Source: a virus. Taken from it: a DNA stretch of 64,000 nucleotides. Each line of letters starts with the position of its first letter. Position 1 is the stretch's first letter. Below are positions 10,566 to 46,869 of this stretch, one piece after another. A model generated the notes under the pieces. It was not told the DNA's origin. It was given only the letters and a program-made list of their open reading frames with translations, and made no database searches. Both the position numbers and the translations under genes were made by a program. Where the stretch lies: the IMG/VR virus record IMGVR_UViG_3300029951_000007, one strand, 5' to 3'.

Positions 10566-10751
10566 TTATTTGATTTGTGCGATGGACCCGCCATCGACGT
10601 TGTCTTTCGCCTTGTCGGACAAGAGCTTGATTAACTGGCGCAAATCGCAACAGACTTCGCGCAACAGTTTGTTCGTCTCTCGTAGTTCACGTGCTAGATC
10701 ACCCTCTACATCAGGCGGGTAGCCGGGGTGTCTACGGAAATCATCAGCCAT
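10566..10751 (-). CDS. hypothetical 61-aa protein
   Basis: ATG at 10751 (MADDFRRH...) with a GGGAG RBS. The track starts this ORF at a GTG at 10769. Confidence 0.4.
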   Translation of the reverse strand: MADDFRRHPGYPPDVEGDLARELRETNKLLREVCCDLRQLIKLLSDKAKDNVDGGSIAQIK

Positions 10752-10790
10752 AGACTTGGCTCCCTTCACGCAGCGGTTGCTGCTGGTTTA

Positions 10791-10796
10791 ATTATA
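10791..10796 (-). promoter_or_regulatory. TATAAT box (minus strand), member of recurrent motif
   Basis: The minus strand reads GCCACTATAATTAAACC, ~40 nt upstream of the ATG at 10751. Confidence 0.35.
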
Positions 10797-10879
10797 GTGG
10801 CCTGGTGGGTGGTCTGGCTAGTTACTGCGACATGCGTACAACGGGTGTTACAAATAGCTCACTGGCTGGACAACCAATT

Positions 10880-14685: not shown

Positions 14686-14749
14686 TGGTCGGTGAAGAAG
14701 GATTTGAACCTCCGGCATCTAGCTCCCAAAGCTAGCGCGCCATTCACCG
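14686..14749 (-). tRNA. tRNA-Pro(UGG)-like element lacking a D-arm, CCA encoded
   Basis: The minus strand reads CGGTGAA-TGGCGCG-CTAGC-TTTGGGA-GCTAG-ATGCC-GGAGG-TTCAAAT-CCTTC-TTCACCG-A-CCA. It has a 7-bp acceptor stem, a 5-bp anticodon stem and a T-arm with GGTTCAAATCC. Only 7 nt occupy the position where the D-arm should be. Confidence 0.5.
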
Positions 14750-36649: not shown

Positions 36650-36775
36650 TTGATTCCTGCCACAGGAAACCGCCCACGTGCCGCTTGACGTCGAAGTGGA
36701 AGATCGGGCTTGTGGCTGGAAAGATGCGGAAAGCATTGAGCGGCTTCCGTATACCAACAGAGCAAAGGAGCGCCT

Positions 36776-36997
36776 ATGTTAGACATGATTGCAATAGAGA
36801 TGGCGCTGGAGAAGTTCAGAGCGAAGTGTCCTGATTCATACAAGGGCGTCGACGACTCTGAAACTATCTGCGCCATCTTGGGCTCTGCCGGCATGTTTGG
36901 AAGCATGGCGGCGCGTGCTACTAGCGAGCTGTGCCGTCTGCAAGCGAACATCGATGCGACGTTGTCGCCGGAATTTTGGAAAGAGGTAGACAAATGA
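36776..36997 (+). CDS. hypothetical protein
   Basis: Track ORF. Confidence 0.45.
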   Translation: MLDMIAIEMALEKFRAKCPDSYKGVDDSETICAILGSAGMFGSMAARATSELCRLQANIDATLSPEFWKEVDK

Positions 36998-39091: not shown

Positions 39092-39245
39092 TGAAGACGC
39101 TGCGTAAGGAATGGCGGATAGCGCGCTACTACGGGGCCAGCAGGAAACTTGCTTTAAAGATAGTGTTTAGAAATTGGCGCTACAAGCGCCTGGGCCTCTA
39201 ACGCAGCAACAACAATTCGTTTGGTTGAAAGAAGGAGCTTTACGA

Positions 39246-39500
39246 ATGTACGCATCGATCGATTTCGCCAATAAGACAGAACTCCGCGCAGCAATCAAGC
39301 AAGGTCAGACCGTAGTGGCATACTCACCCACGCTCGGTATGGCGGCTGTAACTGGTCGAACTAAGATTGAAGGGCCGTGGCCGATTGGCGCGGTCGCAGC
39401 AGACGCCACCACGCAACAACCGGTGGTACGCTATCGCGGTCTGAACAGGTGGAGCGCGTGGGTCGACGTACGCGATATGCGCGTGGTGGCGGTGCACTAA
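39246..39500 (+). CDS. hypothetical protein
   Basis: ATG at 39246 with a GAAGGAG RBS. Confidence 0.45.
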   Translation: MYASIDFANKTELRAAIKQGQTVVAYSPTLGMAAVTGRTKIEGPWPIGAVAADATTQQPVVRYRGLNRWSAWVDVRDMRVVAVH

Positions 39501-39585
39501 GTTCGCAATGCGTGACCTCAGCTCGCTGGCAGACCGGGTGCGAAGTGTCTGCCGACTAAGGAGCTACGGACCAGGAAACTGGACG

Positions 39586-39719
39586 TACGCTTCTCTGGAC
39601 CTACCGCAACAACCTACCGAGTGTCCGGAGGGTTCTCTCGGACAGAGCAGCGCGGGACGCGGGTGCCCTTTCCATCCGGGTGCGCTGCGAGTGGTGAGTG
39701 GTAGGTCCAGAGAAGCGTA
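39586..39719 (+). ncRNA. candidate structured RNA / 5' leader element closed by a 20-bp perfect helix
   Basis: 39586-39605 (TACGCTTCTCTGGACCTACC) is the exact reverse complement of 39700-39719. Internal helices are TGTCCG/CGGACA (39622-27/39639-44) and GCAGCGC/GCGCTGC (39647-53/39682-88). The only ORF here (39508..39720) has no RBS and odd composition. Confidence 0.45.
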
Positions 39720-39736
39720 AGATCAAGGAGAAAGAG

Positions 39737-40204
39737 ATGAGCACAACAACGAATGGAGAAGTTTGCTTTGGAGTACTGCTAAATGACGAGGCGGAGGAAT
39801 TTGAGCTGCCTTGGATGGCGGCAGACGTTGACTGTGACGAAGAGGAGTGGTGGCTGAAGGTGAACGGCTACAAGCCGCCGTTTGAGCTCTTCACAGAAGA
39901 TGGCGACTACATCGGCGGTGTAGAGCCGCCGCGTGCGAAGGTGCGTGAGTACTACGCGCACAAAACCGCGTGGATGAAGCTGAACCCATTGCCGTTCGAA
40001 TTGGTTAATTACCGCAGCGGTGATTGCCCCATGTACATACTGGCCGTGCCTGGAACGGTGCAGACGGCCAATCGTGGATATCCGAAGGAGTTGACGCTGG
40101 ACACGCGCATCCGCCCACTGAGGCAGATAGTGCTGCGTGAATTTTGCAAGAAGTACAACCTACCCACTGAATTCAAGTGGTGGCTTACAAGCTACTGGGG
40201 CTGA
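39737..40204 (+). CDS. hypothetical acidic 155-aa protein
   Basis: ATG at 39737 with an AAGGAGAAAGAG RBS, immediately after the RNA element. Confidence 0.5.
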   Translation: MSTTTNGEVCFGVLLNDEAEEFELPWMAADVDCDEEEWWLKVNGYKPPFELFTEDGDYIGGVEPPRAKVREYYAHKTAWMKLNPLPFELVNYRSGDCPMYILAVPGTVQTANRGYPKELTLDTRIRPLRQIVLREFCKKYNLPTEFKWWLTSYWG

Positions 40205-40205
40205 C

Positions 40206-40652
40206 ATGCAGACCTTCCTTCCCTACAAGTCGTTCGTCAAATCGGCCGCGTGCCTGGATAATAAGCGGTTGGGCAAGCAGCGCGTGGAAGCCTACCAGCT
40301 GCTGAACGCGCTGCTAGGCTTGACGCACAAGCCAGGATCCGCCGTGCGCAAAGGATGGACCAACCATCCGGCAGCGTTGATGTGGAAAGGCCATGAAGGC
40401 GTTTTGTACCAATACGCTTGCATTGTATGCGACGAGTGGAAGCGACGCGGATTCAAGAACGAGGCCATGGAGGCTAATCTTCTGCGGCTGTTCAACGTAG
40501 TCGCTGTGCGCTTGATAAAGACATCGACGAGTCCAACGTGGCTAGGTAGTAGGAAGTTCCATGCGTCGCATCGCAGCAATCTACTGCGGAAGGATGCAGC
40601 GTGGTATGGGAAGTTCAACTGGAAGGAGCCGGCAGACCTGGAGTACGTCTGA
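40206..40652 (+). CDS. conserved hypothetical, possibly pyrimidine-dimer DNA glycosylase (DenV/Pyr_excise)-like
   Basis: MQTFLPYKSFVKSAACLDNKRLGKQRVEAYQLL...WTNHPAALMW resembles the N-terminal LD..L..Q.RE pattern of that superfamily. This is from memory only. Confidence 0.4.
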   Translation: MQTFLPYKSFVKSAACLDNKRLGKQRVEAYQLLNALLGLTHKPGSAVRKGWTNHPAALMWKGHEGVLYQYACIVCDEWKRRGFKNEAMEANLLRLFNVVAVRLIKTSTSPTWLGSRKFHASHRSNLLRKDAAWYGKFNWKEPADLEYV

Positions 40653-40674
40653 CCGGTGCAGAAGGAGAAGTAGC

Positions 40675-41602
40675 ATGCCATTTGACGCAATGTACGACCA
40701 AGGAGTAGGTTTGAACCTGACGTCTAAGCCGCCTCTAGTAATACACCACAGTCCATGTCTTGACGGCTTCACCGCTGCGTGGGCCATGTGGCTGCAGTAC
40801 CCTGACGCCGAGTTCGTGCCGGGCGTGTACGGACAGGCTCCTCCGGATTGCACCGATCGTGACGTGTACCTGTTGGACTTCAGCTACAAGCTGGAAGTCA
40901 TCGACGCCATGCAGCGTGTCGCCAAGAGCATCACCATCTTGGACCACCACAAGACGGCCGAGAAGGACCTGTCCAATCTCTGGTCGCTGAACGACTGCAA
41001 AGGGGGTCACGAACGTGACGTGCATCTTCGACATGACCAAGTCCGGCGCGCGGTTGGCATGGGAGTGGTTCCATCCGCACACCGAGGTTCCCATGCTGGT
41101 CAGGGCAGTGGAGGACCGCGACCTGTGGCGCTTTTCTCTCGCGTACACCAAAGAACTAAACGCCGTATTGTTCAGCTACGACTACGACTTCAAAATATGG
41201 GGTTCCTTATCGCGACAAATGGAGTCTATTCCTGGTCTTGCCAGCATGCTGGAGGCCGGTCGAGCCATCCTTCGCAAGCAGGACAAGGACGTTCGCGAGC
41301 TTATCGGCATGACGAAGATGCGTCGTAGCATCGGCGGAATCATGGTGCCGTGTGCCAACATGCCGTATACGCTGGCCTCGGATGCAGCGAACTTGATGGC
41401 GGAGGGTAAGCCATTCGCCGCCACGTACTACAGCGACAAGGACGGCTTTGCGGTGTTCAGCCTGCGCTCCAGGGAGGATGGCGCTGACGTCAGCGAGATA
41501 GCCAAGAAGTACGGCGGAGGAGGCCACAAGCATGCCGCTGGGTTCCGCATCGAGTTGGTGAATCACATGCTCGGGTTGTACGACTATGAGAGGACAAAAT
41601 GA
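40675..41602 (+). pseudogene. DHH/DHHA1 phosphoesterase interrupted by +1 frameshift at an A3G5 run
   Basis: Frame A (40675..) carries HHSPCLDGFTAAWA, VYLLDFS and ILDHHKT. Frame B (..41602) carries DHHA1 GGGGHKHAAGF. The frames switch at AAAGGGGG (40999-41006), and deleting one G gives ...NDCKGVTNVTCIFDMTKSGA.... Confidence 0.65.
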
Positions 41603-46804: not shown

Positions 46805-46869
46805 AATTCTAAGTCGTACTTGGTCGGTAGCCCTCACTGCTGGCCAAGTACGGCGAAGAAAGGAGTACT

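Follow-up and report, generated by a model that had tools for sequence, protein, structure and literature searches.

A covarying, long-stemmed RNA-like element bordering a variable gene slot in peat phages

Does a short intergenic stretch of an uncultivated phage, closed by a perfect 20-nt inverted repeat, encode a structured RNA, and does it serve the gene directly after it? The initial annotation had described the stretch as a structured RNA-like element and considered it a leader of gene 39737. The locus was analysed with respect to fold, relatives, covariation, gene order and distribution. The structured element on the + strand, for which no Rfam family was found, was borne out; its assignment as leader of gene 39737 was not.

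The locus and its fold

The window, i.e., the whole stretch of DNA analysed, comprises 64 kb of a phage genome of ~100 kb, so about 36 kb lie outside it. The - strand carries portal, terminase and head genes as far as about 16 kb. A + strand block with primase/helicase, DNA polymerase, helicase, ligase and many small genes begins at 17 kb, and the element sits in this replication/nucleotide-metabolism module. In the Pfam survey, the + strand genes included a thymidine-hypermodification set (5-hmdU DNA kinase, TET-associated glycosyltransferase, InPase, a dCTP-deaminase-like protein and two nucleotidyl transferases), due to which the phage DNA is probably hypermodified, as well as Fic, SPFH/Band_7 and HNH proteins. 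A tRNA-like sequence is found at 14689-14749 on the - strand; it scores 49.4 bits with the Rfam tRNA model, lacks the D arm (11 model positions missing), has the anticodon loop UUUGGGA and was not called by ARAGORN.

The features of the locus are as follows (window coordinates, unless a relative is named):

39246..39500, + strand: 84-aa gene, whose homologs always precede the element
39584..39721, + strand: whole element (covariance-model footprint), one copy per phage, MFE z = -7.4
39586..39607, + strand: 5' strand of P1, the 22-bp closing helix; foot UACG kept in all versions
39612..39618, + strand: weak junction helix, pairs with 39689-39695; repeats CCUACC of P1, alternative partner possible at 39700-39706
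39622..39644, + strand: P2, a variable branch hairpin; differs in L011/L014 and L013, missing in L012
39647..39688, + strand: P3 arm of the MFE fold, outer helix GCAGCGC/GCGCUGC bearing the conserved apical hairpin
39660..39678, + strand: conserved apical hairpin CGGGUG-CCCUUUC-CAUCCG, with one compensatory G-C to C-G change and one G.U
39698..39719, + strand: 3' strand of P1, foot CGUA; the last base, 39719, is the homology breakpoint against the minority strain
39720..40725, + strand: variable gene slot with the 155-aa gene and a pyrimidine-dimer glycosylase; ~380 nt instead in the minority strain
39725..39739, + strand: RBS and start codon of the 155-aa gene, outside the conserved unit
L011 3339-3481: L011 version of the element
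L014 1936-2075: L014 version of the element
L012 3374-3488: L012 version, found without change in L016-L023 as well as in two IMG/VR contigs and one JGI contig
L013 3257-3368: L013 version, more divergent

The left arm TACGCTTCTCTGGACCTACC (39586-39605) is the exact reverse complement of 39700-39719 over 20 nt. The extension by a G.U and a C-G pair, which had been noticed together with the repeat, gives P1 its 22 bp (39586-39607/39698-39719). Two further helices had been proposed inside it, and both are present in the MFE fold, namely 39622-27/39639-44 in P2 and 39647-53/39682-88 as the outer helix of P3. The arms are the sole long perfect inverted repeat within the 64 kb; a second copy of the arm was absent from the window even when 3 mismatches were allowed, and none of 100 shuffles gave a match.

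The + strand of the region 39580-39725 folds with an MFE of -82.8 kcal/mol (z = -7.4), and none of 200 shuffles was equally stable; the - strand of the same region reaches -74.8 kcal/mol. In a GC-corrected scan with 150-nt windows, the element was the top outlier of 3,200 windows per strand on both strands (z about -7). The next most stable 150-nt folds are at 36761-36950 and 10681-10830, both on the + strand, with GC-corrected z about -3.7 and -4.0. GC content is 63% in the element vs 55% in the flanks.

At the base of the junction, the sequence ACCTACCG is present in two copies with an offset of 13 nt (39599-39606 and 39612-39619). Since both copies are able to pair with GGTAGGT at 39700-39706, the junction base could take an alternative register; L012 has a similar arrangement (CCUAC/CCUGCC). 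Other intergenic hairpins with a (C)GUAC foot were seen in L013 (873-935) and in the window (46816-46851), and the window shows a mild over-representation of GTAC (307 vs 242 expected) and CGTACG (37 vs 19). GUAC-footed hairpins as a general feature were rejected, since one other small hairpin is all that the window contains.

The conserved unit does not include everything that had been noticed at the locus. The repeat CCGGGTGCG at 39534 and 39676 and the upstream hairpin at 39528-53 are both present; both lack significance and conservation and are outside the conserved unit. The spacer 39501-39585 folds with z = -0.6 and is 33-47% identical to that of the relatives.

Relatives, covariation and strand

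Four clear versions of the element (window, L011, L014 and L012-type) and one divergent version (L013) were found. Each of the versions in the relatives L011, L014, L012 and L013 is itself unusually folded (z = -6.1 to -7.5). All follow a common plan: P1 with the foot UACG/CGU(U)A, an optional P2, an irregular arm and a 6-bp tip hairpin with the 7-nt loop CCCUUUC. In the relatives, P1 consists of 19-22 uninterrupted bp, or of 27-29 bp with single bulges. P2 sequences are unrelated between versions, and P2 and the internal loops are free to vary, while hardly any change is seen in the apical hairpin GGUG-CCCUUUC-CACC. Four versions share the block GGUGCCCUUUCCA without a difference, and all five contain CCCUUUCC; in L013, the apical hairpin reads GACGG-UCCCUUUC-CCGUC.

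A covariance model (R1) was built from the four alignable versions. It gives one match per phage, with 110-148 bits on the + strand and 29-36 bits on the - strand. The match in the window covers 39584-39720 with 132.7 bits (+) vs 36 bits (-); a second copy in the window was not found, and phages without the 84-aa gene gave no match. L013 is matched weakly (19.7 bits, E about 5e-4, filters off), this being the best match in that locus, and is probably a family member, judged by architecture and synteny.

Conservation and compensatory covariation in relatives had been set beforehand as a check on the proposed structure, and both were found. In a register-correct hand alignment of P1, 85 of 85 pair-cells are paired (78 Watson-Crick, 7 G.U, 0 A.C), with compensatory double changes at 6 positions. 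A tool count on a MAFFT alignment of P1 and the apical hairpin found all 96 cells paired and a change on both sides in 9 pairs. Since L012 is shifted by one pair in this alignment, which accounts for 2-3 of the 9, the hand count is the more conservative of the two. None of 500 shuffles reached either value of the tool count, and slid controls were 31-46% paired. These numbers rest on four alignable versions, two of them close to each other, plus one divergent version, and hence comprise few independent events.

Every P1 pair that is not Watson-Crick is a G.U on the + strand. All five versions fold more stably as + strand than as - strand, by 8-21 kcal/mol, and G.U pairs number 27 on the + strand vs 10 on the - strand. 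Therefore, the functional strand should be the one transcribed with the surrounding genes. Between L011 and L014, identity is 93% in the element, compared to 74% in the upstream gene, 76% in the spacer and 48% in the next 40 nt; the differences within the element fall in the P2 loop, in a bulge, or change G-C/A-U to G.U. Selection acts on the pairing, and it does so on the + strand. The element is very probably a functional structured RNA read from this strand.

The element represents a new family of RNA whose general kind is already known. A long closing helix with the foot, the CCCUUUC apical hairpin and a position directly 3' of the 84-aa family occur together in the window, L011, L014 and the L012-type phage. 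Rfam 15 gave no match at the gathering threshold; for 39400-39800 on either strand with E <= 10, two noise matches of 12 and 10 bits were all that was returned. Like the metagenome-derived structured motifs collected in Rfam (phage-associated motifs, ribozymes, Y RNA/YrlA, 6S, SRP), the element is intergenic, supported by covariation and found in contigs of uncultivated phages alone; in contrast to them, it matches no Rfam 15 family.

The phage is abundant in peat metagenomes, with an identical protein in 95-110 blocks of the assembly collection, and three assemblies as well as the contigs of all eight peat runs show the element at 100% identity. Near and distant nucleotide searches of INPHARED (50,697 sequenced phages) found no close relative, and tblastn against INPHARED phages found remote relatives only. 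The paired-arm pattern had no copy in 185,579 prokaryotic genomes, and viral-contig scans with both flanking proteins and the arm gave no match. In IMG/VR, the L012-type phage (two contigs) was all that three pattern scans and one protein-profile scan yielded, and one pattern scan of JGI metagenome contigs returned a single L012-type contig. A loose hairpin pattern gave 13 matches in IMG/VR; all are in long ORFs without a closing helix and were discarded as chance. As far as these collections show, the element appears confined to a small clade of peat phages.

Gene content on either side of the element

Upstream, a conserved block consisting of a DnaJ-like gene, a 151-aa gene and the 84-aa gene precedes the element. 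Sequence searches of Pfam, PHROG and PDB gave no match for the 84-aa protein, and its predicted structure (pLDDT 57) was too poor for a fold search. Homologs of the gene were found at 80-53% identity. In every readable contig with such a homolog, an uncalled gap of ~225-300 nt follows the gene and holds the element architecture. In five runs of the L012-type phage (L016-L020), the gene of the 84-aa family is frameshifted at a G run and the element is identical, which argues weakly against the 84-aa protein being an obligatory partner of the element. In L012 (3232-3337; also in L016-L023), a second, unrelated long-stem module with 27-nt arms (z = -5.3) lies between this gene and the element.

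Downstream, the gene content changes. In the window, the element is followed by the 155-aa gene (39737-40204) and the glycosylase gene, in a minority strain by a small unrelated gene, in L011 and L012 directly by the DHH phosphoesterase gene, and in L014 by a 114-aa gene. The minority strain (L010 3476-3690) has ~8-9x depth vs ~60x for the main strain, makes up ~13% of the population in two runs, is also present in one ENA assembly and keeps the element. It diverges from 39719/39720 to about 40725, where the two strains come together again within the first codons of the DHH phosphoesterase gene; the ~380 nt in between encode a small protein (MKLKELDYEVKAVVEF...). The first four DHH codons differ as well (MSDE).

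The DHH/DHHA1 phosphoesterase gene of the window (40675-41602) is broken by a change of frame near a G5 run at about 41002. Its N-terminal part of ~100 codons is read in one frame and the C-terminal 195 aa, which are 76% identical to the intact 298-aa homolog of L011, in another. A contig of peat run X21 is shorter by 1 nt at 41002, so that DHH would again be one ORF of ~308 aa there.

In two independent pairs, main vs minority strain and L011 vs L014, homology stops at the 3' foot of P1, and the assembly graph of the contigs from four peat runs branches exactly at 39719. Since the downstream gene varies and homology ends at this foot, the element forms the fixed left edge of a slot for accessory genes. 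By the same variability, it is not the leader of one particular gene: it is syntenic with the upstream 84-aa gene, and the next gene varies. Homologs of the 155-aa gene occur in other phages at 67%, 46% and 45% identity, and the gaps upstream of these homologs contain no such element and no notable structure. A recent insertion before gene 39737, suggested by these relatives without element, was overturned by the relatives of the 84-aa gene. A genome end inside the left arm, where one MEGAHIT contig starts, was dismissed as a bubble artefact of the strain branch. Alternative junctions were found neither in the window nor in viral or JGI contigs.

Candidate functions and known systems

No sigma-70-like promoter was found in 39100-40000 or in the gaps of L011 and L012, bearing in mind that the promoter type of the host may differ. 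There is likewise no intrinsic terminator near the element in the window, L011 or L012, and no U tract follows P1. Across 30-48 kb, promoter-like and terminator-like signals are both below chance, and the flanking genes are all on one strand, which fits a polycistron.

An idealised E. coli RNase III substrate is 22 bp, i.e., two turns, long (PMC3867540). P1 of the window has this length. The long uninterrupted helix, the enclosing topology and the intercistronic position together favour a processing stem; bacterial RNAs seldom retain at least 20 uninterrupted bp unless meant for cutting. We tentatively propose, at somewhat less than even confidence and by analogy, that P1 is an RNase III-type double-stranded-RNA processing stem enclosing a small RNA. 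The element would be read from the + strand within a long early/middle polycistronic transcript. A cut in P1 would part the upstream from the downstream message, the former ending in a stable structure and the message of the slot gene beginning a few nt before its own RBS. Cleavage would also free an RNA of ~90-100 nt, whose C/U-rich loop would bind a protein or a purine-rich RNA, e.g., a Shine-Dalgarno region.

Among known systems, the element may work most like the RNase III signals of the T7 early intercistronic regions and the pre-16S/23S rRNA stems. There as here, a helix of about two turns is formed from flanking sequences or between cistrons, the genes run in one direction with no promoter or terminator nearby, and the position is kept while the stem sequence covaries. 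The T7 sites consist of irregular hairpins that contain an internal loop and are not known to share an invariant apical loop. In contrast, the element encloses a branched interior and the invariant CCCUUUC hairpin, and it has no sequence similarity to any known site. An RNase III site needs no invariant loop, thus processing may be secondary to a function mediated by the loop.

This leads to the closest rival, a trans-acting small RNA or protein decoy, stand-alone or processed, whose function would lie wholly in the CCCUUUC loop, with P1 just stabilising it. Examples would be pairing with the purine-rich Shine-Dalgarno of host or phage mRNAs, or titration of an RNA-binding protein; a protein-binding decoy, also suggested in the initial annotation, is possible. 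The rival overlaps with the processing-stem reading and differs in what matters, the loop instead of the cut. It would account for GGUGCCCUUUCCA being identical between phages whose flanking proteins are only 62-65% identical, with covarying stems and a freely varying branch hairpin and internal loops around it, and for the element staying unchanged beside the frameshifted upstream gene of L016-L020. However, a promoter or terminator of its own was not found, and the window shows no enrichment of the loop complement GGAAAGGG (3 sites vs 1.3 expected, one being the element itself). We consider this reading possible but rather doubtful.

A more specific version joins both ideas. The invariant pyrimidine loop CCCUUUCC seems to resemble CCUCCUUUC, the 3' tail of many bacterial 16S rRNAs, and this likeness makes an action in trans on Shine-Dalgarno sequences conceivable. 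The element could then be an sRNA excised by a stem similar to that of pre-rRNA, which would reprogram translation via Shine-Dalgarno sequences or a host RNA-binding factor, and at the same time a fixed docking edge for exchanged cassettes of RBS plus gene. We regard this combination as unlikely.

Could the element be a translational regulator in cis of whichever gene comes next, with the structure or the C/U-rich loop controlling the RBS 5-20 nt after P1? An RBS directly after the helix had been noticed before and is confirmed (AAGGAG, 5-6 nt downstream); in every version, RBS and start codon lie within 6-25 nt of the helix, and the pyrimidine loop is complementary over 4-6 nt to each purine-rich RBS. 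However, such complementarity is expected from composition alone, and the RBS lies beyond the helix, where the fold leaves it unpaired. The downstream genes are different and unrelated between phages and strains, and phages with a 39737 homolog but without the 84-aa gene have no element. A leader of this kind is accordingly quite improbable.

The element could also act as DNA, i.e., as a + strand ssDNA hairpin or a cruciform, for single-strand initiation or primase loading, or as a recombination site at the slot edge. Its location in the replication/nucleotide-metabolism module and the two gene-content breakpoints exactly at its 3' edge would agree with this, and G.T is the mildest DNA mismatch and is tolerated in single-stranded DNA. 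However, purifying selection on any functional element also yields breakpoints at its edge, the strand asymmetry follows the transcribed strand, and no iterons or AT-rich tract are nearby. With a single copy per genome, recombination between copies as for PeSL is not available. We think that a function in DNA form has only a slim chance of being correct.

PeSL cassettes of T4-type phages consist of a strong sigma-70-like promoter and a terminator stem-loop, flank ORFans and recombine between the many copies of a genome (PMC2839356, PMC4122927). Similar to them, the element is an intergenic stem-loop with the Shine-Dalgarno sequence and start of the next gene directly after it, and it borders a hyperplastic region with breakpoints of insertion, deletion or replacement between close relatives. 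Unlike PeSL, it has no promoter-like or terminator-like signal, is present as a single copy within the 64-kb window, is much larger and branched, and shows covariation of the RNA type.

A mobile origin is very improbable. Bacterial MITEs (e.g., Correia/NEMIS, Nezha) are ~130 bp long, intergenic, foldable as RNA and have ~20-bp terminal inverted repeats. A MITE of ~134 bp recently inserted before gene 39737 would share size, repeats and intergenic site with these; its perfect 20-bp arms, the GC content of 63% vs 55% and the lack of the element in L004, the nearest relative via gene 39737, would speak for it. However, the window contains one copy and the 185,579 genomes none, no direct repeat (target-site duplication) flanks the arms, and in the contigs of 8 peat runs, which drop rare forms, no other context at >=80% likeness and no empty site were found. 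The element keeps the same syntenic position in diverged phages, and its arms covary instead of being conserved, so copy number and synteny effectively refute this reading. An inverton was rejected too, as there is no promoter-like site and no recombinase family, and the contigs of 8 runs and 3 assemblies, which miss rare forms, show one orientation.

That the region encodes a protein has a negligible chance: the overlapping 70-aa ORF 39508-39720, noticed initially, does exist, as chance predicts at 63% GC, but it has no RBS and no Pfam hit, was called by no gene caller in three assemblies and is not conserved in frame; counted from the 5' arm, the conserved core is in frame 0 in the window, +2 in L011 and +1 in L014 (indels of 1 and 2 nt).

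In retrons, the msr-msd RNA of ~100-200 nt has internal hairpins and is closed by long inverted repeats (a1/a2). Unlike a retron, the element has no adjoining reverse transcriptase, and its neighbours are variable; the Pfam survey of the 73 ORFs of the window found no reverse transcriptase, recombinase, RNase III, Ro or RtcB, and the lack of an RNase III gene there speaks against the processing-stem reading.

To our knowledge, conserved structured phage RNAs are few, with almost none from soil or peat viruses. The element described here adds one with clean compensatory evidence, a clear strand and an invariant loop that must contact something. If the processing-stem reading is true, the element illustrates how expression of swapped-in genes is insulated in a large uncultivated phage, and the compact module of stem and RBS-proximal cut would possibly be usable in synthetic operons. 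If the loop targets translation of the host, the element would be a new phage takeover RNA.
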